A DNA stretch of 64,000 bases from an uncultured Bacilli bacterium (GTDB taxonomy: Bacteria; Bacillota_I; Bacilli_A; RF39; UBA660): the NCBI GenBank assembly GCA_910578855.1, contig CAJTRV010000004.1:5551-69550 (forward strand). Reading direction: 5' to 3'. Below the pieces are notes generated by a model that made no database searches, had not been told where the DNA came from, and saw nothing but the letters and a program-made list of their open reading frames with translations. The translations under genes were made by a program, and so were the position numbers. Within the stretch, counting starts at the first letter, position 1. Every line of letters begins with the position of its first letter. Shown in pieces: positions 6,581 to 64,000 of the stretch.

Positions 6581-7672
6581 TTATTTTTGATAACGACTAA
6601 TATTTAAAATAATTCCAATACTAGACATCGTAATAAGCAAGCTAGAGCCTCCATAACTTAGAAATGGAAGTGTAACCCCAGTTACGGGAATTAAGCCAGT
6701 TACAACCATTAAATTTAAAATCGCTTGGAAGCCAATTTGAAAGGCAATCCCAAATGTCAAATACTTCGCAAACATATCTTGACTCTTTCTAGCAATCTTA
6801 AACGCACGCGTAAGAATAATAAGAAACAAACCAACGACAATAATGACCCCTAGAAAACCAAACTCTTCACTGATAATGGAGAATATAAAATCAGTCTGTG
6901 GTTCTGGTAGATAGAAATGCTTTTGTCGCGAATTTAAAAAGCCATAGCCAAATAATCCTCCAGGACCAATCGCATATAACGATTGAATGATCTGGAAGCC
7001 ACTACCAAGTGGATCCTTCCATGGATTTAAAAAGGATAATATCCGTTCTAACCGATAGGGAGCTACAGCAATCAAGCCAACAATCCCGGCCATTCCAAGC
7101 ATTCCCATGCGTAAGAAAAATTTGAAAGGAACACCGCCAACAAAGATAAGCCCCATAATACTCATCACGATAATCATTCCGGTTCCAAAGTCAGGTTGTA
7201 ACATAATAATTCCAAAGACAAGTAAGGTAAGGCTTAGAATCGGTAAAACCCCTTTTTTGATATCAGTCATCTGCTTTTCATTCTTAACCAGATACTTCGC
7301 TGTAAAAATGATAAGTGCCAATTTCATGAACTCACTTGGTTGAATCCCAAATGAGCCAATTCCAAACCAGCTACGACTTCCATTCCGAACCGTTCCAATC
7401 CCAGGAATTAAGACCAACACCAATAAAATAAAACAGGTAATAACCAAAGGTGTAGCCTTCTCATAATAAAGTCGATAATCAATTTTACTAATAACATACA
7501 TAAAAACTAGTCCCAAGAGAAAGAAGACACCTTGATTAATGACAAATTTAAATGGATTATGAAACTTATATTCAGCCCATACATAAGAAGCGGAATAAAT
7601 CATGATAATTCCAAAGATGGAAATCAAGATCACACTAATCAGAAGTCCATAATCAATATTCCCTTTTTTCAT
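6581..7672 (-). CDS. ftsW: SEDS-family peptidoglycan glycosyltransferase (FtsW/SpoVE/RodA)
   Basis: 10-TM protein with the N-terminus IDYGLLISVILISIFGIIMIYSAS typical of FtsW/RodA. It sits after mraY in the dcw cluster. Confidence 0.8.
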   Translation of the reverse strand: MKKGNIDYGLLISVILISIFGIIMIYSASYVWAEYKFHNPFKFVINQGVFFLLGLVFMYVISKIDYRLYYEKATPLVITCFILLVLVLIPGIGTVRNGSRSWFGIGSFGIQPSEFMKLALIIFTAKYLVKNEKQMTDIKKGVLPILSLTLLVFGIIMLQPDFGTGMIIVMSIMGLIFVGGVPFKFFLRMGMLGMAGIVGLIAVAPYRLERILSFLNPWKDPLGSGFQIIQSLYAIGPGGLFGYGFLNSRQKHFYLPEPQTDFIFSIISEEFGFLGVIIVVGLFLIILTRAFKIARKSQDMFAKYLTFGIAFQIGFQAILNLMVVTGLIPVTGVTLPFLSYGGSSLLITMSSIGIILNISRYQK

Positions 7673-53853: not shown

Positions 53854-54230
53854 AATTTTTCTCCTAACATTATTTCCATAATTTCTTGAATTCGATTAAA
53901 GTGACCATTTAGATAATGATACCCAATTAATGCTTCTAAACCAGTTGATTCTTTATAAGTTACAATGTCAGTATGCTTAGGATGACGAGATCCTTTATGA
54001 TTCCTGGCACGTTTCACAATCTGAATCTCTTCGGTTGTTAATGATTCCTGATCTAGTAACATTTTTAAATAACGACTTTGGGCTTTGGCACTAACATATT
54101 GAACAGCTTCTTTCTGAAGATCATTCACTTTACAAAGACCTTTTTTTAATAACAGAGTCCGAATAACAACTTCATAAATACTATCACCAACATAAGCCAA
54201 CGCCAAAACATTTAGGCAATCTGTTTTCAT
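53823..54230 (-). CDS. mrnC: Mini-ribonuclease 3
   Basis: LALAYVGDSIYE RNase III-like motif. 135 aa. Confidence 0.8.
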   Translation of the reverse strand: MKTDCLNVLALAYVGDSIYEVVIRTLLLKKGLCKVNDLQKEAVQYVSAKAQSRYLKMLLDQESLTTEEIQIVKRARNHKGSRHPKHTDIVTYKESTGLEALIGYHYLNGHFNRIQEIMEIMLGEKLCISMEKMSH

Positions 54231-55108
54231 ACAAGTTCCTCAATTCGATCAAAGGTAATTCCTTTTATTAGACCACTTTTCATATCGTTTAAAATGAGAT
54301 TCATCACGCGGTCATAATCAATTTCCCCACCCTGAATCATACATCCTCGACGTTTACCAATGATATCCAACGTGTTAACCATATCTTCTTCATCAATAGT
54401 CGTAATTCCATAACGTGATTCTAACTCCTGAGGATAATAAGTATATAGCATGTTCAAAATGTAACAGACCACATCATAAATAGGCAATACTTCCTCTTTA
54501 ATTGCCGTTAAACTTGCGAGATTAAGGGCAATAGTTTGATCATCAAACTTCGGCCATAGTACCCCTGGTGAGTCTAACAATTCAAGACGCTGATTGATGC
54601 GAATCCAATCCAATGACTTCGTCACTCCAGGACGGTTTCCAACATTGGCAACCTTTTTTCCAACTAAGCGATTGATCAATGTGCTCTTTCCAACATTGGG
54701 AATCCCGACAACAAGGACCCGAATACGTCTTGATTTCATTCCTCTAGCAATCATATCATCCATCTTATCTTGCATCATCGCTTCAGTCTTTTTCACTATT
54801 CCGGTTGTACTTTGTTGATGCTCTAAATCAACCCCCATTACTTGATAACCTAGTTGTTCATAATACCGAATCCAGCGCTCTGTTTCTTTTTTATCACATA
54901 GATCCATCTTGGTCATAATTAACAACTTCGGCTTATTTCCAATAATCGATTCAATATCTTGAATCTTTGATGAGTATGGCATCCGAGCATCGATTACTTC
55001 ATAAACAACATCAATAACACTCATTTTTTCCTTCATAATTCGCTTGGCTTTCGCCATGTGACCGGGATACCAGTTGATTGTCGTATTTTGTCCTTTATTG
55101 TCGTTCAT
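54227..55108 (-). CDS. rbgA: Ribosome biogenesis GTPase A
   Basis: WYPGHMAKAKR, DARMP and NVGKSTLINRL circularly permuted GTPase motifs. The start MNDNKG has an AGGAAGTG RBS. Confidence 0.85.
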   Translation of the reverse strand: MNDNKGQNTTINWYPGHMAKAKRIMKEKMSVIDVVYEVIDARMPYSSKIQDIESIIGNKPKLLIMTKMDLCDKKETERWIRYYEQLGYQVMGVDLEHQQSTTGIVKKTEAMMQDKMDDMIARGMKSRRIRVLVVGIPNVGKSTLINRLVGKKVANVGNRPGVTKSLDWIRINQRLELLDSPGVLWPKFDDQTIALNLASLTAIKEEVLPIYDVVCYILNMLYTYYPQELESRYGITTIDEEDMVNTLDIIGKRRGCMIQGGEIDYDRVMNLILNDMKSGLIKGITFDRIEELV

Positions 55109-55559
55109 TTGTTTCACTTCCTTTAGATTTATTTTTATATTTAACATATTCTTCAATTTTTTTATTATAGTTCTTTAAATCTTCTACAAATTGAGGCTTA
55201 AATTGATTTAAATAATCAATGATTAAATCAGCATATTCATCAATATTTTCATCATCAACTATATCTATGAGATATTTATTGATTCCTTTTTTAGTATTTA
55301 TTCTTTCTACATAAAAGGCTAACAAATTAGTTGGACCTATTTTTTCTTTTGCTGATAAAACAATAGAAATCAAATTTTCTCTTGATGCATAATATCTCGG
55401 TTTAAATCCATTTGACCTAGAAAATAATATCAAAGTACAACCAATAAATAATTTATCTGAACCATTTTTAGGAAATGTTTTGTTTGCAAATTCAATTAAA
55501 CTTTCTGTATTACCCTGTTCGTAATCATCATATAGTTCCATTAAAATTCTATTTATCAT
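55095..55559 (-). CDS. Hypothetical protein (cassette 1 variable partner B1); its stop overlaps the rbgA start by 14 nt
   Basis: 154 aa. The C-terminal residues KSKGSETNERQ are encoded by the rbgA RBS region. Confidence 0.5.
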   Translation of the reverse strand: MINRILMELYDDYEQGNTESLIEFANKTFPKNGSDKLFIGCTLILFSRSNGFKPRYYASRENLISIVLSAKEKIGPTNLLAFYVERINTKKGINKYLIDIVDDENIDEYADLIIDYLNQFKPQFVEDLKNYNKKIEEYVKYKNKSKGSETNERQ

Positions 55560-55569
55560 TTTATCTCCT

Positions 55570-55845
55570 CTATTTATATAGACTTTTTATAACTCTATTA
55601 ATGCAATCTTTGGCACTTCTGTTATTATTTGAAAAACTAATTTTTACTAATGTCCCATTTACTTTAAAAGCATATGGATTCTTTGTGGAAGCAATAAAAT
55701 CCAATATTCTTTCATTACTAGGTTTTCTTCTATCTATTTTTATATTTGTTATTTCATCCACATCTTCTAATTTTACATCATCAAGATTTACATTTCTACA
55801 TCTTTCTAATTTTTCTGCTAATTCTTTAATATTATATTTATTCAT
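55570..55845 (-). CDS. Small conserved protein A1 (paralogue of 57697-57996)
   Basis: MNKYNIKELAEKLERCRNVNLDDVKLEDVDEI...: 47 of the first 49 aa are identical to A2. Confidence 0.55.
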   Translation of the reverse strand: MNKYNIKELAEKLERCRNVNLDDVKLEDVDEITNIKIDRRKPSNERILDFIASTKNPYAFKVNGTLVKISFSNNNRSAKDCINRVIKSLYK

Positions 55846-55927
55846 AAAATCACACTCCATATTAATTATAAAATCAAATACAATTAATGTTAAATGTGCA
55901 ATTTTTTATTATAAATGATAATCTTTA

Positions 55928-56953
55928 CTAATCTTTATTATTTTCTGAAGTTTCTAATAATTTTGTACTTTCAATAAATTTATCGAAGTCAGAAATATAT
56001 AATTGGTCTTGTTTTTCCTTAAACTTATCATACTCTTTATATGCAAGTTCTTGAGCCACTTTATGAGATATTTTTCCTGCATCATGCAGTATTTCTTGCC
56101 CATTAAATTGTAAAAACGCATCCAATTTTTCTACCCAATCTTTCATTGTCATCGCATTATGATTTTCTGCTTGTAATTCAGCATAATCTAAATACATAGT
56201 AACTATTCTATTTAAGTTTTTTAATTCTTTTTCTGTCAAATAATTTTTAGCAATATCAACATCATATTTATAAATCGTTCCATCAGGAGAACCTGTCCAA
56301 TTTGTTAAACCCATATTGTCTTTTTCTGAATCAACTCTATTATAAATAATCTCTGCAGCAGTATTACCAGTGACTGAATAATGAAGTTTATTCTGCACAG
56401 TTTTAAAAAAAGTTTTAGTGATTTCTGAATCTTTATCATAATCAACACTACAAGATGAATATATATCTGTTATCTTTTGGTAAAATCTTCTTTCACTAGA
56501 ACGAATATTTCTAATTCTTTCTAGTGTTCTTTCAAAATAATCTTCTCCAAAAATATAATTTGGATTTTTTAATCTCTCGTCATCCATAACAACGCCAGTA
56601 ATTAAGTATTCTTTTAGAACTTTTGTTGCCCATATTCTAAATTGCGTTGCTTTTTTGGAATTAACTCTATAACCTACAGCAATAATCATATCTAAATTGT
56701 ATATTTTAGATTTTCTTCCACCTGTACTTTCGTCGGAAATTCCGACAGAAGTTTCTTCCTTAAGTTCACCACTATTTAATATATTATTAATATGTTCTGT
56801 TATGGTACTTCTACCTACTCCAAATAATTCAGCAATCAAATTTTGCGTCAACCAAATATCATTATTAATTAATAATACATTCACTTTGATATCATTATTA
56901 TCATCACGATATATTAAAAAGTCGTGGGTAGTTATTTGTAAATTATTTTTCAT
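55928..56953 (-). CDS. RhuM-family (virulence protein RhuM / Bro-N-like) protein
   Basis: WLTQ..IAELFG...TI.EHI.NI...GEL...S...YNLDMIIAVGYRVNSKKATQFRIWATKVLKEYL...DDERLKN matches the RhuM family core. Confidence 0.7.
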   Translation of the reverse strand: MKNNLQITTHDFLIYRDDNNDIKVNVLLINNDIWLTQNLIAELFGVGRSTITEHINNILNSGELKEETSVGISDESTGGRKSKIYNLDMIIAVGYRVNSKKATQFRIWATKVLKEYLITGVVMDDERLKNPNYIFGEDYFERTLERIRNIRSSERRFYQKITDIYSSCSVDYDKDSEITKTFFKTVQNKLHYSVTGNTAAEIIYNRVDSEKDNMGLTNWTGSPDGTIYKYDVDIAKNYLTEKELKNLNRIVTMYLDYAELQAENHNAMTMKDWVEKLDAFLQFNGQEILHDAGKISHKVAQELAYKEYDKFKEKQDQLYISDFDKFIESTKLLETSENNKD

Positions 56954-57215
56954 TTATTTTCACCGCTTTCTTATGTTCTTAAATGTCGTAATCACCTATC
57001 TAATTTCTATTATAAATAGCGCAAAAATTACTATATTTTTATGAATTTTTATTGTTTTTTATCATTTTTTAATGAAAACATGCAAGATATAAATTGGATA
57101 GTTTCCTTTATTTATAAGGGTTTAAGGGTGTTCTTAATTAAATCGTAATCAACCAGTTTATGTTTGCCTGATTTTGTCGATTTTCATTATTCATTTATTT
57201 CACTTCCTTCAATTC
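56954..57215. repeat. Inter-cassette repeat R1 with a leader/promoter region plus a pseudo-copy of the rbgA RBS + 18 codons (MNNENRQNQANINWLITI*)
   Basis: About 85% identical to 58900-59160. The pseudo-rbgA start lies at 57138-57194 on the minus strand. Confidence 0.7.
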
Positions 57216-57704
57216 AATATTATTTTCTAATAAAACGCTTTCTAATGTTTCATTTTCGTTTATAATATATAAGTTCTCATAATTTCTTTGCAAACAATCC
57301 TCATAGAATGGAACAAATACATTTCCCAAGCCACTAATAAAACTTTCATTATTACCTCGATTTATACACTTTCTCTTTACATCTTCCCAATTATTAATAT
57401 TAGGATATGCTATACTGTATTTAATATTATTTTTATCGAAATAATCGAAGTGTTCTGGTTTTAATTGAACTAAAACAACATCATATTCCTTTATAGCCAT
57501 TCGAATGGCTTTATAGTAATTCTTTGGCCATTCACTATTTACTTCTCTTTTCGTTCCTTTTCTTGCTTCAACAGGTACATTTTCAAGATTAGTATTAATA
57601 TATTTAAAATTACTCGATTCTAAATCAATTACATTCCTATATTTTTTACCCAAAATGCTTTTTCCACACGTTGCAAATCCTGCAATTATTATTCCCTTAG
57701 CCAT
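57195..57704 (-). CDS. Small P-loop NTPase/kinase (zeta-toxin/AAA_33-like)
   Basis: GFATCGKS Walker A. 169 aa. The C-terminal LKEVK* is encoded by the RBS copy of R1. Confidence 0.6.
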   Translation of the reverse strand: MAKGIIIAGFATCGKSILGKKYRNVIDLESSNFKYINTNLENVPVEARKGTKREVNSEWPKNYYKAIRMAIKEYDVVLVQLKPEHFDYFDKNNIKYSIAYPNINNWEDVKRKCINRGNNESFISGLGNVFVPFYEDCLQRNYENLYIINENETLESVLLENNIELKEVK

Positions 57705-57996
57705 TATTTACCTCTTGTCTATATAAATTTTCTAAAATTTTAGTTAAACAATCATCTGCAGTTAAATTACTATTTTCTGAAAATCTTATTCTAACTAATT
57801 TCCCATTGACTTTAAATATATATGGGTTCTTTTTCTTCATTACAAACGCTAATATTCTTTCATTACTAGGTTTTCTTCTATCTATTTTTATATCTGTTAT
57901 TTCATCCACATCTTCTAATTTTACATCGTCAAGATTTACATTTCTACATCTCTCTAATTTTTCTGCTAATTCTTTAATATTATGTTTATTCATATT
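57697..57996 (-). CDS. Small conserved protein A2 (paralogue of A1); overlaps the downstream kinase gene by 8 nt
   Basis: MNKHNIKELAEKLERCRNV...: the 5' half is ~95% identical to A1 at the nucleotide level. The C-terminal third is divergent. Confidence 0.55.
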   Translation of the reverse strand, partial: NMNKHNIKELAEKLERCRNVNLDDVKLEDVDEITDIKIDRRKPSNERILAFVMKKKNPYIFKVNGKLVRIRFSENSNLTADDCLTKILENLYRQEVNNG

Positions 57997-58056
57997 ATAC
58001 CTTCTTTCTATAATAATTTTATTATTTAGAAAGAAATAACACAAATGTGCAAAATA

Positions 58057-58899
58057 CTAGATATTATCTTTTTCTCCTAATAGTTTTATCTTTTCTGCAT
58101 TATTAAGTATATCAAGTTGATACTTAGCAATGCTACTTAATATTTCAAATCTTTCTTCTTTGCTTTTTCCTTCTTTAATTAGTTCTGCATTATGTGATTC
58201 TAAATTAGATAATACTGTTAATTCATTTATCGATGCATAATCTCTAACATTTGAGTTTTTTGCTAAATTCGGATTAAGTTCTCTCCATCTTTTAGCAGTT
58301 GTGTTAAATAAGGCAACATTTAAAATATCTGCTTCTTCTGCATACTTTAACCATTCTCTATCTTTATAATAATCATTATCAGGTAATATATAATTTTTAA
58401 TTGCATCTGTATGAATAAGATAATTATTTTTGGTTAAGATTCTTTTTATATCCCATTCCCTATTTTGATTTTCTAACTCTTTTAGTCTTTCAAATTCTTT
58501 TATCAAATATAGTTTAAAAACCGGACTAATAGAAGATGCAAATTCAAAAGCAATGTCTTTATGAGCATAAGTTCCACCATATTTTCCACGCTTCGAATAT
58601 ATCCCAATTGCATTTGTTTTACTACACCATTCTGTAACACTTAGTGTAAAAGTATGAAGTCCTGCCTCACTTTTAAACCCGTCGAATTCGACGGAATTAA
58701 AATTTGGATTGTAAATTGACTCCCAAGTACCTAAAAATTCTAAAGTAATTCTATTTCTTAACCAATTTCTGATAACATCATCTGATGTAGATTTTCCTTC
58801 TTTAAACTTGGTAAAATCAGAAATACAAATATAATCGCTATCATTTATATTTGTTATGTTCACTTTAATATTTTGAACTTCAATTATTTTGTTTGGCAT
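58057..58899 (-). CDS. KilA-N domain protein
   Basis: IRNWLRNRITLEFLGTWESIYNPNF...GGTYAHKDIAFEFASSISPVFKLYLIKEFERLKE matches the KilA-N family. Confidence 0.7.
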   Translation of the reverse strand: MPNKIIEVQNIKVNITNINDSDYICISDFTKFKEGKSTSDDVIRNWLRNRITLEFLGTWESIYNPNFNSVEFDGFKSEAGLHTFTLSVTEWCSKTNAIGIYSKRGKYGGTYAHKDIAFEFASSISPVFKLYLIKEFERLKELENQNREWDIKRILTKNNYLIHTDAIKNYILPDNDYYKDREWLKYAEEADILNVALFNTTAKRWRELNPNLAKNSNVRDYASINELTVLSNLESHNAELIKEGKSKEERFEILSSIAKYQLDILNNAEKIKLLGEKDNI

Positions 58900-59160
58900 A
58901 TATTCGCCTCTTTTCCATGTCCTTAAAATTCGTAATCACCTATCTAATTCTTATAATAAATAATACCAAAATTATTAGTTTTTATATTTTTAATTATTTT
59001 TTAATGAAAATATGCAAGATCTAATCTAGATAATTTTCTTTATTTATAAGGGTTTAATGGTATTCTTAATTAAATCGTAATCAGCCAGTTTATGTTTGCC
59101 TGATTTTGTCGATTTTCATTATTCATTTGTTTCACTTCCTTTATTATTTAACATTGAGAA
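58900..59160. repeat. Inter-cassette repeat R2 (pseudo-rbgA start at 59070-59126 on the minus strand)
   Basis: Homologous to R1. Ends with cattattcatttgtttcacttccttta, identical to the real rbgA RBS region. Confidence 0.7.
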
Positions 59161-59312
59161 TTTAAAAAATTTGCAATTTGTTCTAAATTTTTAAATATTT
59201 TTCCATCATTTCTTATAACTATTCCTCTTGCACCATATCTCATTCTAGGCTCATTCATTTCAATCATACTTTCGCCTAAATCTTCATCAGTTATTTTACA
59301 TATTAATTTCAT
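59148..59312 (-). pseudogene. 54-aa ORF, probable truncated remnant (NUDIX-like N-terminus?)
   Basis: MKLICKITDEDLGESMIEMNEPRMRYGARGIVIRNDGKIF...: it terminates inside R2. Confidence 0.25.
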
Positions 59313-59338
59313 TAATATCATCTCGCTTTCATTTTATA

Positions 59339-59863
59339 TTACAACTTGTATTCTTTTATCTCACAATTCTTCAATCCACGATTTAAAAACCAACCATCAT
59401 TAATGCCATCAAAATATGCACTAAAAGCTTTTGAAACACCACTATGTGCAACAATTAAAACACTTTTATAATTTTGAGTTTTAAGTTCATCTAAAAAATT
59501 ATATATTCTATCAAAAAAGTCTTTTATATTTTCAGAGGTTCCATATTGAATTGTTGTATTATAATTCCAATATTCATCACGATTAGTTATTTCAAGAGGT
59601 TTACCACTTAAATCTCCACAACTTCTTTCTTGAATTCTATCATCAATAATAATTTCATTATTATTAGCATTAATAATATTAGCTGTGTGTTTTGCCCTAA
59701 TTAAAGGTGAAGAAATTATAATATCAAAGTTTATATCTTTAATTTTGTCTCTTAATTCTTCTGCTTGACTTATTCCAAGTTCAGTTAAATCTTCATCTTT
59801 TGTATTATATTGTTTCAATGCATTATGAGGTACTTCACCATGTCTTACTATATATATTTTCAT
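59339..59863 (-). CDS. Histidine phosphatase family (phosphoglycerate-mutase-like) protein
   Basis: IVRHGE catalytic motif and AHSG. Confidence 0.7.
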   Translation of the reverse strand: MKIYIVRHGEVPHNALKQYNTKDEDLTELGISQAEELRDKIKDINFDIIISSPLIRAKHTANIINANNNEIIIDDRIQERSCGDLSGKPLEITNRDEYWNYNTTIQYGTSENIKDFFDRIYNFLDELKTQNYKSVLIVAHSGVSKAFSAYFDGINDGWFLNRGLKNCEIKEYKL

Positions 59864-60084
59864 TTATTGACTCCTTTTTTATAGAATTTTTATAGTAACA
59901 TTTTATCATCGAGGATATATATTTATTTTATTATTGATACCATTATATTAAAATCATACTCATTTTTACTATTTTTATCTGTTTCTAAGGTTATATGATT
60001 ATTCTCTGTTTTTCCTTTAAAATAAAGCAAATCAGCTATTTTAAATTGTCGTGTCATTTCGCGTACACAAGCCAGGAAGTCAGG

Positions 60085-60710
60085 CCCATATGTTCTTTAT
60101 TTGAATCAACTCTATTATATATAATTTCTGCTGTTTGTTTTGATACAGCAAAATGCATTTTGTTTTGTACTTTTTTAAAAAATTCAATTGATATTGGAGA
60201 TTTAAAATCATAGTCAATACTTGTAGCATATATATCTGTTATTTTTTGATAAAATCGCCTTTCTGATAACCTTATTTCTCTAATTTCTTCTAATAATTTT
60301 TCAAAATAATCTTCTCCAAAAATATAATTTGGATTTTTTTATCTTTCGTCATCCATAACAGCATCATTAATTAGATATTCTTTTAAAACCTTTGTTGCCC
60401 ATATTTTAAATTCTGTTGCTTTTTTAGAATTGATCCTGTATCCAACTACAATAATTACATCTAAATTATATATTTTGGTTTTATATTTTTTACCATCAGA
60501 GGCAGTTATCGAGGATTCCTCGATAACTGAATCCTGATTTAATGCATTATCTTTAGAAATTGCAGATTTTTTTATTTCCTTTTCATATAAATCTCTAGCA
60601 CCTTTAGCAACTCCTCCGCCTCTTTTTGCTACATTTAAATTTTCTTTTAAACCTTGCGGATGTTCTTCTCTTGCAATATCTCGTGTTGCAATCTCTCCTA
60701 TATTTGTTCA
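60085..60710 (-). pseudogene. Degenerate second copy of a RhuM-family gene (middle/C-terminal part, frameshifted)
   Basis: Nucleotide similarity to 56230-56760 (shared strings such as tcttctccaaaaatataatttggattttt, tgttgcccatatt). Absent from the ORF track because of stops. Confidence 0.55.
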
Positions 60711-60717
60711 CTAGCTT

Positions 60718-61263
60718 TCATTCCAGACCACCCCTTATAGATTTCATTGGTTTGGTTATGCCTCCTTCTTTCCAAACATCTGTAAGTTTAAATCTATCTA
60801 CAACCCCCATTAGTCTTGCCTTAATCCATTCATCAGAGTACCCTTTATTACGATAATAATTTACTGCTCTATTTATTGCAATTTCAGGATCAAATACTTC
60901 ATCAATCCTCTCACTACCAAGACTCGCTAACCAAACTTTAAATGGTTCGGCCTTAGGGCTAGAAACTGATTCAATTAATCTTAATATTCCATTTGTATCT
61001 AAAGTATCAGTTATACGATTTTTACCATCCCGGGCCTCCATTTTCAACTGCACGATTTCTTCGTGCAGTTCACTTCCTTCATAAATTAATCTTCTTTTTA
61101 AACCGCTCCAATAATTTCTTGGGATTTTTGCTTCAGTTAATACACTTATTACATCAGCAACGCTAAAATAATACTCTTCTTTTTCACTATCCCAAATGCT
61201 TCTTATTTCTTTACCTTCAAATAAATTTGATATTGTTTCTAATTTGTTGTTCAAATATAACAC
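60718..61263 (-). CDS. DinD/Bro-N-like protein (truncated relative to ~270 aa family members)
   Basis: FEGKEIRSIWDSEKEEYYFSVADVISVL resembles the DinD N-terminus (FEEIRHYGTEGQEFWSARELAPLL). Confidence 0.5.
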   Translation of the reverse strand: MLYLNNKLETISNLFEGKEIRSIWDSEKEEYYFSVADVISVLTEAKIPRNYWSGLKRRLIYEGSELHEEIVQLKMEARDGKNRITDTLDTNGILRLIESVSSPKAEPFKVWLASLGSERIDEVFDPEIAINRAVNYYRNKGYSDEWIKARLMGVVDRFKLTDVWKEGGITKPMKSIRGGLE

Positions 61264-61440
61264 CTCTTTTCTATGGTCTTAAATGCCGTAATCATCTTTC
61301 TAATTCTTAAATAAAAATATGGAAAATTTAAAATCGTACAACCTCCTTATTTATAGGGATTTACTTAAGAGTGCAATAAATCGTAATCAAACAGTTAATT
61401 CTGACTGATGAAAAACTTTTTTGATTACTTTCGCTATTCT
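61264..61440. repeat. Inter-cassette repeat R3 (diverged copy; pseudo-rbgA start decayed)
   Basis: Shares ttaaatg(t/c)cgtaatca, tttaag.accat and ttgattacgattta blocks with R1/R2. Confidence 0.5.
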
Positions 61441-61503
61441 TTTTTCTTGTCTCATTTTTCCCTTTTGATATATATCCATATTTTTCACTTTCTTTTCAAT
61501 AGT

Positions 61504-62064
61504 TTAAAGTTTTTTACCCATTACAATGGGTCTATCATCATAAATATGAATTCTGTTATTTATATCACTAATTAATGCAACAAGTTTTCTAGGATTTTCT
61601 ACTCCTTCAAAACTCATTCCATTTTTTATTTGTTCAATTAAATTATTAGCATAAAAATTAAAAGATATATCTCCATAATTATTTTTTTCTCTTGCAATTC
61701 CAATATGTTCTATATCAGATATATTTTCTATCCTAAATCCATTTTTAGAATTATATAGAGCTATCCTTTTATTGGTAATAAAATATTCATTATTTTTCTT
61801 TTTATATTTTAAGAATATATTATAAACTAATCCATAAATTAAACAAATTGTTAATATGCCCAAAGTAAGAAAAATTATCAAAATTTCAAAATTTAGTATT
61901 TCCCCACTTTTTATACCTATTATAATTAATATCCAAAATAATAACAATACGGCAAAACCTAATAAAAATCTACCATATTGTTTACTAGTCTTACTAACGT
62001 TTGAAACACCATAGAATAATATTTTTTCATTCTCTTCCAATTTATTTATAAACTCATTTTTCAT
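61504..62064 (-). CDS. Membrane protein with a bacterial PH (bPH_2-like) domain
   Basis: Two TM helices then a YFITNKRIALY motif. Confidence 0.5.
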   Translation of the reverse strand: MKNEFINKLEENEKILFYGVSNVSKTSKQYGRFLLGFAVLLLFWILIIIGIKSGEILNFEILIIFLTLGILTICLIYGLVYNIFLKYKKKNNEYFITNKRIALYNSKNGFRIENISDIEHIGIAREKNNYGDISFNFYANNLIEQIKNGMSFEGVENPRKLVALISDINNRIHIYDDRPIVMGKKL

Positions 62065-62201
62065 TTATCTCTCTCCTTACAATTTATTAAATATAATACC
62101 ATTTAATAAAAGAGAATTCCTTTATTAAAATCATTCTAGTTTTATCCACTATAGATTCCTCATAAGATAACCATTTATTCATTTCGAAAATGCATTTATT
62201 T

Positions 62202-62840
62202 TTATTTAAAGATTACATATGGAATGCCCATTTTATGATAAACATCATAAGCTCGTGGCCACGAGAACATTCGGGCAATTAATAAATTATAAAGTTCATC
62301 AAACATGATGATAGAACACAATGTAATTGAAAGCATTAAAAATAATTTTTTATTCATCCGTTTCGCAAGAAAAAAACACATAGGAATTATGACATACATC
62401 AACAATAAACTAGATAACCCAAAGAACATAACACTTCTTAAACAAACAAAACCATGAATGTTTCCAAAGTTTAAAATTTCCGAATTATAATCCCAACAAC
62501 GCATTCCATTTCCAATGATATACATGCCCAAACCTGATATATATTCGAGAATCCCAGTTGCAAAAAAACTAATTAAAAATACCCAGAATGGTTTTTTTCG
62601 ATGCTTGTAAGTTAATAGATAAATCATAATTGAACCTGTCGCATATATATTAATCCATGGTAAGAAATTACCACCTCGCCAATAAAATTGTTTCATACCA
62701 CCATTAAAATAATAAAATATAAATTCATAGATCCAACCAAAAATTCCGGTGATAACGATTAACAGACAACAAATTCCTAGCATCGTCCATTTATCAAACG
62801 AATGATTATTTTCTATATAATGTTTATACCATTTCTTCAT
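62202..62840 (-). CDS. Polytopic membrane protein (possibly the putative ABC-transporter type IV / DUF1113 family)
   Basis: 6 predicted TM helices. Family assignment is from memory only. Confidence 0.4.
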   Translation of the reverse strand: MKKWYKHYIENNHSFDKWTMLGICCLLIVITGIFGWIYEFIFYYFNGGMKQFYWRGGNFLPWINIYATGSIMIYLLTYKHRKKPFWVFLISFFATGILEYISGLGMYIIGNGMRCWDYNSEILNFGNIHGFVCLRSVMFFGLSSLLLMYVIIPMCFFLAKRMNKKLFLMLSITLCSIIMFDELYNLLIARMFSWPRAYDVYHKMGIPYVIFK

Positions 62841-62896
62841 ACTACTAAACTCCTACCTCATTATATCGTAAACAAAATATTAACTTAACAATTGTC

Positions 62897-64000
62897 CTAC
62901 TTTCGTTCTTCCATTTTCAATATTTTTTGTTTTCCTTTTTCATAACTGCTATCTAACACTTGCTGCTGCTTTAATAACTGTTCTTGTTGAGCCATAACCG
63001 TTTCTTCTAACGATTGTAATTCCTCTAAAAATTGTTCCACTTCAGGACTTCGATCATAAGCGAACTGTCCCATAAACTCCATCTTTAACGATTGAAGTTG
63101 ATCAAGTGAATCAGCGCAAAAATCAATCGACATCATCAAAGCATCTTTCTCTGTTTTTAATTGTTTCATTATCTTTTTTAAATCAAAATAAGCAATATCC
63201 TCGTTTCGGTCTTTGACCATATTGCGCATACCGCGAATTCCATGGTTCGTAAGCAATATCCCAGTTAGTAAGCCAAAGGCATTCTTGCGACTCTTTAATA
63301 ACGTAAAAACCCCCAGACTAGCAAACATTGTATGTTTAATTAACGATCCTAATCGAAAGAGACGACCACGTTTTCTCTTATGTTGTGGCAGTTTCCAAAG
63401 ACTCGCCTGTAATGACTCAATCATAATCCGTTGTTTGGTAATTTCTTGACTCATTTTTTTCTTTTCCAGAGTAATATCGACCATTTTCTCTTTTTGTTTA
63501 TTCAATACTTGTTTCTCTTTTTCTTTTTTTACCACTTGCTGCTTCTGCTTCACTTGCAATTGGTGAGTTCGCTCTTGACACTTCTTCAATCTTGATGCAA
63601 AGATAAGATCGGATGTTAAAAAATGTTCCTTATCTATCTTTTTTAATGTCTTATCAGAGGCAAACTTTGAAAAACGATATTGCTTTCGCATCGATAATTC
63701 TGACATATGACAAGAAAATATTTTATCATAAAGATTCGATAATTGAAGCAGAACCATTCCTATTTCCTTGTCATCAATTGATCCAGTATATTTTGCAAGT
63801 TCCCGGTCAAATTCTTTTAGTTTTTCATGACTTTCTTCTAAATATTGAGCAAGTACCACGATCGCTGGATCTTTACCCTCACCGACTTTTTTTCGTTGTG
63901 GAGAAACCAAGACCATTTCCGTGGCTTCTGCTAGCGCTATTTCTTTTTGTTCTAATTGTTCACTTACCGCATCGATCGTATCAAGTGTTTCCTCAAGTTG
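62897..64000 (-). CDS. Coiled-coil protein, C-terminal part (the frame stays open upstream to the window end)
   Basis: K/E/Q-rich heptad-like sequence. No stop between 63917 and 64000 in frame. Confidence 0.45.
   Translation of the reverse strand, partial: QLEETLDTIDAVSEQLEQKEIALAEATEMVLVSPQRKKVGEGKDPAIVVLAQYLEESHEKLKEFDRELAKYTGSIDDKEIGMVLLQLSNLYDKIFSCHMSELSMRKQYRFSKFASDKTLKKIDKEHFLTSDLIFASRLKKCQERTHQLQVKQKQQVVKKEKEKQVLNKQKEKMVDITLEKKKMSQEITKQRIMIESLQASLWKLPQHKRKRGRLFRLGSLIKHTMFASLGVFTLLKSRKNAFGLLTGILLTNHGIRGMRNMVKDRNEDIAYFDLKKIMKQLKTEKDALMMSIDFCADSLDQLQSLKMEFMGQFAYDRSPEVEQFLEELQSLEETVMAQQEQLLKQQQVLDSSYEKGKQKILKMEERK

Follow-up and report, generated by a model that had tools for sequence, protein, structure and literature searches.

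A probable tandem array of small integrative cassettes at the 5′ end of rbgA in an uncultured gut Bacilli bacterium

We analysed a stretch of 64,000 nucleotides (the window) from an uncultured Bacilli bacterium (GTDB lineage Bacteria; Bacillota_I; Bacilli_A; RF39; UBA660; NCBI GenBank assembly GCA_910578855.1, contig CAJTRV010000004.1, positions 5,551 to 69,550 of the forward strand). Upstream of rbgA (ylqF), an essential GTPase gene of ribosome assembly (TIGR03596, 344 bits for a cut-off of 208), three groups of genes each start with a different first gene, called the head below, located behind a conserved leader. This region probably corresponds to a tandem array of three small integrative cassettes, stacked by site-specific recombination in codons 12-13 (Asn-Trp) of rbgA. 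We are more confident that the units are site-specific mobile cassettes and that the "leader" is their conserved end. Genes between 54 and 62 kb are on the minus strand throughout, and the array is flanked by rbgA on one side and by a membrane protein gene on the other.

The intergenic regions upstream of the three heads align over about 240 nt, and the similarity of the leaders noticed in an earlier, sequence-only reading thus holds under formal alignment. Each of them opens with a copy of the rbgA ribosome-binding site (RBS), ATG and first 13 or so codons, and belongs to a module of about 205 bp whose tail is the 33-nt motif (AATTAGAWAGRTGATTACGRNNTTTAAGRMCAT) described in that reading. The motif has exactly three matches in the window, all on the minus strand and with 0 mismatches (57005-56973, 58949-58917 and 61305-61273). 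No further match was found in the 64 kb at up to 3 mismatches, nor in 100 shuffles, and 0 are expected. A purine-rich RBS and a start codon lie downstream of every copy, as had been claimed for the three first genes. Using a profile of 61 homologous modules (that of cassette 1 and 60 of other genomes), we recovered the modules at 57163-56955 (E 3e-47), 59095-58900 (E 2e-33) and 61402-61260 (in two pieces); when the leader was looked for elsewhere in the window, the profile matched just these three copies.

The crossover dyad C1, with consensus ATnAAC-TG-GTTGATTACGA, forms the end of the displaced rbgA start. The junction is a 6-7-bp inverted repeat around TG (ATnAAC-TG-GTTGAT, as compared to ATCAAC-TG-GTATCC at the rbgA site), and the units measure from crossover to crossover about 2306, 1932 and 2083 nt, in order from the distal end. 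The live rbgA start has the sequence AAAGGAAGTGAAACAAATGAACGACAATAAAGGACAAAATACGACAATCAAC-TGG-TATCCCGGTCACATG. In the two internal copies it is ...ATGAATAATGAAAATCGACAAAATCAGGCAAACATAAAC-TGG-(T/C)TGATTACGATTTAA, and in the outermost one the ATG is missing and TGG is replaced by TGT. Because the YlqF profile begins at residue 11 (the I of I-N-W), the exchanged N-terminal peptide lies outside the conserved RbgA core, and rbgA stays intact after insertion since the right end of the cassette carries a replacement RBS, ATG and 10-17 codons. RbgA starting at ATG 55108 is not on record by exact look-up, because gene callers took an upstream ATG.

The three heads belong to distinct families. The gene at 56953..55928 encodes a Virulence_RhuM protein (PF13310, E 4e-109; 364.2 bits for a gathering threshold of 33.7, residues 77-316), the gene at 58899..58057 a KilA-N protein (PF04383, E 4e-19; 68.9 bits for 23.8, residues 7-140) and the gene at 61263..60718 a Bro-N protein (PF02498, E 3e-8; 34.5 bits for 25.6). 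The idea that all heads are of the Bro-N/KilA-N type was therefore correct for the last two genes and not for RhuM, which has no Bro-N or KilA-N match at E<=0.01 in the Pfam search. The Bro-N head is truncated, covering positions 8-167 of a 286-position PADLOC profile, and its relatives at other loci are about 290 aa long. It groups with these common ~290-aa Bro-N heads, apart from the cluster labelled DinD by eye, and its start is probably TTG 61254 rather than GTG 61263. All three heads match PADLOC candidate-defence families (RhuM, PDC-S05, E 5e-140; KilA-N, PDC-S22, E 7e-116; Bro-N, PDC-S13, E 6e-69). The proposed modular organisation is supported, as one conserved upstream module with interchangeable first genes. 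The suggested defence function finds support in the match of the heads to candidate families; the leader, for its part, is not primarily a common regulatory leader that drives sensors.

To place this array in a wider context, an exact search with the junction 19-mer was made in one genome per species and gave at least 118 loci. About 20 chance matches in GC-richer or unrelated genomes were excluded, leaving 104 sequences (103 fetched loci and the array of the window). These are AT-rich metagenome-assembled genomes labelled Bacilli, Tenericutes, Erysipelotrichaceae, Clostridium sp. CAG:1193/CAG:594 or Ca. Caccosoma. An rbgA-like arm (RBS, ATG, 10-17 codons) is located upstream of the junction in all 104 sequences. 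The rbgA gene itself was found downstream of the junction in 33 loci, with its W-(Y/F)-P-G-H-M signature 0.7-4 kb past the junction, and wherever rbgA falls within the fetched stretch the junction sits upstream of it. Conserved genes upstream of the loci are lepB (18 loci), rplS (14 loci), trmD and rimM. At least two junctions (two to four) were present within 8 kb in 31/104 loci. The internal layout of the module is also conserved: a second TGATTACG is located exactly 157 nt past the first in 50/83 units and 155-158 nt past it in 72/83, outlier spacings of 145-147, 114 and 95 nt being about 1, 4 and 6 helical turns shorter, and the ATG of the head gene lies about 205 nt past the junction.

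Strain comparisons revealed that this position is polymorphic. An identical mini-RNase III is encoded by contigs from mouse and other gut samples, which assigns them to one species. Upstream of rbgA, at least five different contents were seen in these contigs, including the three-cassette array, an element ending in two large serine recombinase genes (loci L129 and L130), a cassette with histidine phosphatase (L133) and one with RhuM (L134). Identity to the window is 99.5-99.8% from 55075-55079 (AAC|TGG) on, and the N-terminal arms before AAC|TGG are unrelated. L134 had been considered as an empty site on account of its N-terminal arm and was rejected, since it holds another RhuM cassette. Cassettes are also shared between species. 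The KilA-N + DUF6870 cassette recurs in L103 with 95% identity over 1188 nt, against 65% for rbgA, and the RhuM cassette recurs with 91-93% identity in L042, L065 and L080. In sample SRR28738930, the distal junction and the start of cassette 3 are identical to those of the window and the rbgA-proximal contig holds the two-recombinase element; the two contigs could belong to different strains of the sample, and the pattern fits new units entering beside rbgA and old ones decaying distally. A look-up of the upstream 186-aa gene gave solely arrays with the same distal junction. The alternative offered by the sequence-only reading, that of satellite or prophage remnants, came closer to a mobile-element origin than its main proposal, but strain polymorphism and cross-species identity favour live or recently live cassettes over remnants.

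We then compared the motif, named C2 hereafter, with the crossover site. C1 can be written AT-n-A-ACTGGT-TGATTACGA...TTAAGAAC and C2 AATTA-GAAAGG-TGATTACGA...TTAAGAAC: the two have the same length and the same outer positions, with a different centre. C2 and the crossover are separated by 157 bp (15 helical turns), an interval that includes four phased A-tracts. A-tracts about 10 nt apart are kept in ~70% of the 61 modules (periodogram peak, 10.5), and the predicted bend would bring C1 and C2 onto one face of the DNA. At the same rbgA point, we found variant half-site cores (TGATTACAA, TGATAACAA, TGAGAACAA, TGATATTGA, TGATACCGA and TGGTGTTTA). In at least 15 variant units, representing seven core variants, the site located 146-158 nt downstream matches the unit's own half-site better than the canonical one, as illustrated by the pairs TGATACCGA/TGATACCGA at 157 nt, TGGTGTTTA/TGGTGTTTA at 148 nt and TGATTACGT/TGATTACGT at 156 nt. 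C1 and C2 thus evolve together, which implies that one protein reads both. We tentatively propose that the recombinase binds C2, which would then have an accessory or regulatory function. A TATAAT (57014-57009) is found just upstream of C2, and C2 may therefore serve as an operator as well. The leader, viewed by the sequence-only reading as regulatory, is thus in the first place the left end of a cassette, running from the crossover and containing a duplicated half-site; the position of the motif just upstream of the RBS leaves room for regulation, and an operator role of C2 may rescue that part of the idea.

Several other end types join the same rbgA arm at ...AAC|TG|G, namely at least three more families, B (GATATGGGGAT...AAAACCATAG), C (TTGnCTGTATTTATGGCGAC) and D (TATAAACCGACTTATGGAAAAC), as well as several variants of the canonical end (loci L007, L017, L022, L032, L036, L043, L044, L047, L052, L056, L069, L080, L087, L088, L097, L098, L099, L105, L113 and L114). 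The rbgA site is therefore a common hotspot of several element lineages.

A recombinase was sought by clustering the open reading frames (ORFs) of the loci. The sole recurrent one is a protein of about 410 aa with Resolvase, Recombinase and Zn_ribbon_recom domains, that is, a large serine recombinase, found in 7/104 loci, always inside cassettes and in cassette orientation. It is encoded by the last gene before the rbgA arm in L096, L141, L129 and L130; in the sister strains L129 and L130, two such genes (569 and 528 aa) are located directly upstream of rbgA. Close metagenomic relatives (59-95% identity) adjoin rbgA (L141) or a junction (L139), and a divergent one, 46% identical, lies within an element of different end type. 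The best NCBIfam match of the ~410-aa protein is CcrB, with 96.6 bits for a cut-off of 900, followed by XisF. The sites would suit such an enzyme, being imperfect dyads around a non-palindromic central dinucleotide common to both partners, from which, with breakpoints at AAC|TGG, we infer TG as the crossover dinucleotide. In both donor and target the left half-site is an rbgA arm, so that an internal junction is attP-like and the rbgA junction attB-like; to judge from these sites, excision would be the same reaction as insertion. Altogether, we think it rather likely that a large serine recombinase drives the cassettes.

In the mechanism that we propose, a cassette would be bounded by crossovers at the TG of the C1 dyad. 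On insertion, the previous rbgA start would be pushed upstream and kept as a relic mini-ORF heading the next "leader". The left-end module would run in the order C1, four phased A-tracts, C2, RBS and first gene, C2 being presumably a second, non-recombining copy of the element-specific half-site. A large serine recombinase encoded by a few sister cassettes would serve the others in trans and join an attP-like junction with the rbgA site; new cassettes would enter beside rbgA, and old ones would decay distally. The same protein may bind C2, as an accessory or regulatory site and possibly as an operator at the start of the cassette transcript. Deletion of a cassette would join the upstream arm directly to TGGTATCCCGG. 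The heads (RhuM, KilA-N and Bro-N, with YhcG elsewhere) would represent cargo from candidate-defence families, usually accompanied by DUF6870 and a small enzyme gene.

A number of observations weigh against this scheme. We observed neither circular cassettes nor empty sites or excision products, and the decay of cassette 3 is clear. No recombinase gene was detected in the window by tblastn with the cassette recombinases; such a gene is visible in about 7% of the 8-kb loci, and its supply in trans is assumed. Large serine recombinases are not known to need accessory sites, and the similarity between C1 and C2 could instead be kept by gene conversion. A consensus promoter scan gave fewer promoter-like sites than shuffles and none in the modules. 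No transfer function or oriT was recognised, and a defence role of the heads is argued solely from family membership. Finally, the dyad can be read in another way, in which a 6-bp spacer separates arms of 5 bp and the partners have 7 bp (AACTGGT) in common; this would suit a tyrosine recombinase, and streptococcal elements located at rbgA use tyrosine integrases (PMC4701971).

These last points lead to the best surviving alternative, in which a tyrosine integrase of the Tn5252/Tn5253 type, or another recombinase encoded elsewhere, would act on the sites, the cassettes being relics of integrative and conjugative elements (ICEs), similar to cis-mobilizable elements (CIMEs), and the serine recombinases mere cargo. 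Besides the identity of 7 bp between attP-like and attB-like sites, it is favoured by the rbgA target point, which is the same as that of ICEs with tyrosine integrases (PMC8571831, PMC4701971). No tyrosine integrase family is recurrent among the 104 loci, and the other transposase-like cluster has just two members, IS110-like by eye. A module of about 240 bp with a distal second site and bent DNA recalls attP arms of the lambda type, but here the second site copies the core half-site and is not a distinct arm-type site. Furthermore, the serine recombinase genes occupy the att-proximal end of the element in the four loci mentioned above. We consequently regard this alternative as improbable.

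About equally improbable, or slightly more so, is the possibility that the motif is a purely transcriptional operator or promoter element, bound by a host or cassette regulator unrelated to recombination that would control the different defence-like heads jointly, along the lines of the sequence-only reading, and that its likeness to the crossover is incidental. The motif does lie 20-30 nt upstream of the RBS, is kept before unrelated first genes and contains a dyad (AATTA-N6-TGATT) located just downstream of the TATAAT, with the phased A-tracts upstream. Against this, it varies in step with the crossover half-site in the seven core variants and its distance to the crossover is helically phased; there is no conserved regulator gene alongside it and, as said, the modules are without consensus promoter. 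The best promoter-like site of the region (55893..55865, 11/12) lies upstream of DUF6870, outside the leader, and a terminator scan found none on the gene strand of the region. The operator idea is compatible with the recombination scheme, because the recombinase itself could act as repressor.

It is still less probable that the array is an inert fossil, made of ancient insertions and local duplications that have become fixed and no longer move, with homologous recombination keeping the repeats alike. The state of cassette 3, a decayed chimera with a shortened module, would be expected in this case, as would the lack of a recombinase in the window and the occurrence of the same three-cassette array in several metagenome assemblies from at least two samples. 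This does not agree with the five rbgA-proximal contents found in one species around a fixed breakpoint, with the near-identical cassette carried by a species of much more distant rbgA, or with the intact head and DUF6870 ORFs of cassettes 1 and 2. Lastly, a cis-regulatory RNA (riboswitch, attenuator or small RNA target) common to the cassettes is very unlikely: although conserved sequence is present in a likely 5′ untranslated region and each of the three copies is predicted to form a small hairpin of 5 bp, Rfam gave no match at E<=1 in 54500-62500, RNAalifold returned an empty consensus structure for the 61 modules, the three leaders folded singly no better than shuffles (z-scores -0.4 to +0.3), and the spacing constraint tracks the DNA helical repeat. 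The RNA structure that the sequence-only reading suggested looking for is thus unsupported by all three approaches. A hairpin after C1 (TTGC...GCAA) was likewise rejected, the alignment fold giving it no support.

The preferred reading of the region as a cassette array can now be followed gene by gene along the minus strand, starting at rbgA (54227..55108). The live rbgA start contributed by cassette 1 (ATG 55108, MNDNKGQNTTINW) and the attB-like junction ATCAAC-TG-GTATCCCGGTCAC occupy 55055..55108, with TG at 55072-55071. Cassette 1 then comprises a 154-aa third-slot gene without family match (55095..55559), a DUF6870 gene (55570..55860; PF21757; likely start ATG 55845, giving 91 aa) and the RhuM head (55928..56953; PF13310, PDC-S05). 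Upstream of the head are C2 (56973..57005, 157 bp from C1, with the TATAAT just upstream), the four A-tracts exactly 10 nt apart between C1 and C2 (57036..57072; predicted intrinsic bend, phasing kept in the 61 modules) and the C1 dyad (ATAAAC-TG-GTTGATTACGA, 57143..57161, central TG 57155-57154).

Cassette 2 is organised in the same way. From the relic rbgA start (MNNENRQNQANINWLITI*, 57138..57194), it continues with a 169-aa third-slot gene (57195..57704; no Pfam family; phrog_4182, function unknown) that displays a P-loop-like GFATCGKS motif, a DUF6870 gene in the conserved second slot (57697..57993; PF21757; 74% identical to the cassette-1 copy), the KilA-N head (58057..58899; PF04383, PDC-S22, phrog_2657), C2 (58917..58949; 145 bp from C1, that is, 157 minus about one helical turn) and the C1 dyad (ATAAAC-TG-GCTGATTACGA, 59075..59093, central TG 59087-59086). 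Long antisense ORFs at 55475-55918 (+) and 57806-58039 (+) overlap the two DUF6870 genes and recur at other loci (cluster 4); most likely they arise by artefact from the AT-rich sequence and are not genes.

In cassette 3, the relic rbgA start (59070..59126) consists of an RBS, an ATG and codons MNNENRQNQANINW, and then runs into the next module (LITI*). The relic starts at 59070-59126 and 57138-57194 are identical 18-codon mini-ORFs (MNNENRQNQANINWLITI*) with good RBSs. Cassette 3 further contains a 57-aa ORF without family match, the last in the cassette (59148..59321), a histidine-phosphatase cargo gene (59339..59863; PF00300, E 3.5e-36), a RhuM pseudogene fragment with an in-frame stop (60080..60560; 79% identical to the cassette-1 RhuM over 282 nt, and called as a 34-aa RhuM remnant in L001), the truncated Bro-N head (60718..61263; Pfam Bro-N, PDC-S13, phrog_15286), C2 (61273..61305; 95 bp from C1, that is, 157 minus about six helical turns) and the C1 dyad (ATTAAC-TG-TTTGATTACGA, 61381..61399, central TG 61393-61392). 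The cassette is a chimera, in which Bro-N is cut at about residue 170 and fused to the RhuM fragment with its stop, and its module lacks about 62 nt of the A-tract region. A displaced and decayed rbgA 5′ arm marks the distal edge of the array (61394..61495); it reads ...NQKSFSSVRINC in the rbgA frame, has no ATG and has W changed to C. This arm resembles the live N-terminus MKKKNNNEKSFTSVGVNW of strain L134 and is identical in L172 and L174. Between the array and lepB (window 61504-63916; L170:4289-9561), genes for an Ig-like surface protein, a 552-aa protein, and CmpB-like and 186-aa membrane proteins break the usual rplS-lepB-rbgA order; the profile search revealed no module relic in this interval.

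The cargo was surveyed across 116 junctions. The first gene encodes a ~290-aa Bro-N protein in 21 cases, RhuM in 15, KilA-N in about 12 (14 in a merged KilA-N/DUF6870 cluster that includes at least two cassettes in which DUF6870 comes first), YhcG (DUF1016_N + PDDEXK) in 9 and a ParB-like protein in 3, the remainder having another first gene or none. Among 84 complete cassettes, the commonest architecture is head + DUF6870 + small enzyme. The small enzymes include ASCH, GNAT, histidine phosphatase and HAD proteins, and genes for UDG and for a nucleoside-deoxyribosyltransferase-like protein are also recurrent in cassettes. The heads may act in phage defence, a tentative suggestion drawn from their sequence families. 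RhuM has been proposed to be a toxin domain linked to restriction-modification loci (PMC3710099), and defence by abortive infection has been proven for BstA, which contains a KilA-N-like domain (PMC8585504).

Among the cassette genes, conservation is highest for DUF6870, which has 518 homologues; the best 120 of the 518 show 69-84% identity. Together with about 70 nt upstream, where TTGCACATTT is shared, it is 76-91% identical at the nucleotide level across cassettes with different heads (55570-55929, 57697-58056, L129:4843-5118). In L129 and L130 it sits between a small resolvase and the two large serine recombinases. Its AlphaFold2 model has a mean pLDDT of 70; a Foldseek search of this model against the PDB gave nothing below E 3.7, and a literature search on DUF6870 found nothing.

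Some loci show cassettes in other combinations. UDG, recombinase and KilA-N genes form one cassette in L139:1-3600 and L029:6300-8000; in L020:1-3500, an arm, a junction and a module are present between a diverged UDG gene (71% identical) and the recombinase, and the comparison of these sequences suggests that cassettes may fuse or split at junctions. A scan of viral contigs gave six matches, of which five were chance matches in unrelated sequence and were rejected; the remaining one (L122) is a real junction beside phage tail genes. This contig (L122:1-7594, IMG/VR UViG_3300006149_000131) carries tape-measure/tail genes, a C-terminal RhuM fragment, a gene for a 300-aa kinase, which by eye we take to be aminoglycoside-phosphotransferase-like, and a canonical arm and junction at 7362. 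From this gene order, a prophage-like block lies within such an array.

A literature search found no description of rbgA cassette arrays in these bacteria. The logic of the array is that of the staphylococcal cassette chromosome (SCC), and its target that of Tn5253. As in SCC/SCCmec, tandem SCC-like elements (PMC11470126) and the Enterococcus cassette chromosome (PMC6222049), insertion is site-specific in a conserved housekeeping gene, and cassettes are in tandem between direct att repeats, many without a recombinase of their own (all three in the window). The SCC enzyme belongs to the large-serine-recombinase family, as the one acting at rbgA probably does, and in both cases the cargo is enriched for defence or candidate-defence genes; defence-carrying SCC-like cassettes that lack a recombinase move in tandem through the action of Ccr recombinases (PMC11470126). 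The rbgA arrays differ by targeting the 5′ end of their gene with a swap of N-terminal codons, where SCC uses the 3′ end of rlmH (orfX), and by a cassette size of 0.5-5.5 kb. SCC elements are tens of kb long. A conserved end module of about 205 bp with a duplicated half-site is not known from SCC. The rbgA arrays are not SCC, because the gene is a different one and the recombinase, with its low CcrB score, is not a Ccr equivalog.

Tn5253 inserts after nucleotide 20 of rbgA and restores the coding sequence (PMC8571831). Tn5253/Tn5252 ICEs (PMC8571831, PMC4701971) thus use the same gene at essentially the same point, just before the W-(F/Y)-P-G-H-M codons, and likewise supply a replacement 5′ end that restores the essential coding sequence. 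Tn5253 is a large conjugative element, and the streptococcal ICEs that target rbgA have tyrosine integrases, whereas the rbgA cassettes are of gene-cassette size, stacked and associated with serine recombinases, and the N-terminal peptide changes with each insertion. Neither a conjugation module nor a tyrosine integrase was found among the cassette genes, and the cassettes are not ICEs because they have no conjugation genes. Integrons, including sedentary chromosomal ones that act as defence stores (bioRxiv 10.1101/2024.07.02.601686), are alike in exchanging cassettes of one to three genes at a fixed site and in their defence-related cargo, and probably also in a recombinase that acts in trans and in having the newest cassettes nearest the insertion point. 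The rbgA arrays are not integrons, because they lack an IntI tyrosine recombinase and attC hairpins (no consensus structure in the 61 modules); their sites are double-strand dyads, and insertion occurs inside an essential gene and not at attI.

Three other systems share some of these features. Small serine recombinases such as those of Tn3/gamma-delta res and Sin resH act on a crossover site with a further site for the same protein at a phased distance on bent DNA, and in these resolution sites of about 90-120 bp the site overlaps a promoter that the recombinase also represses. The rbgA system differs by a 157-bp spacing, by its probable large serine recombinase, and by integration and excision as the presumed reaction. 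Tycheposons of Prochlorococcus are tandem small integrative elements, some of them cargo-only, located at a conserved gene end; they use tRNA targets and mostly tyrosine recombinases, and belong to another phylum and habitat. Genes typical of phage satellites resembling phage-inducible chromosomal islands (own integrase, repressor, replication, packaging interference) are absent from the 2-4-gene cassettes of the window.

On a bolder reading, which goes beyond what we consider likely, the rbgA arrays would form an undescribed integron-like platform of large-serine-recombinase cassettes, widespread among uncultured gut Bacilli, operating by exchange at one dinucleotide in rbgA and serving as a store of defence genes that crosses species. 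As donor and target have the same left half-sites, a single attP-like x attB-like reaction would serve for inserting and excising cassettes, and no directionality factor would be needed. Each gene-sized cassette would bring a new N-terminus to the GTPase, C2 would loop to the crossover site and gate both recombination and cassette expression, and the candidate defence store (RhuM, KilA-N, Bro-N, YhcG) would be paired with DUF6870. More generally, the rbgA cassettes would add a third kind of array to integrons and SCC, in a group of gut bacteria that is large and has hardly been studied. They offer a concrete means for these single-gene defence candidates to pass between species, and they allow the idea of a second binding site built into the site of a large serine recombinase to be tested. 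The compact, naturally paired att sites and the short (~410 aa) serine recombinases are possible tools, and DUF6870 gains a defined genomic setting for functional study. For the bacteria themselves, the arrays show mobile DNA changing the N-terminus of an essential GTPase again and again.

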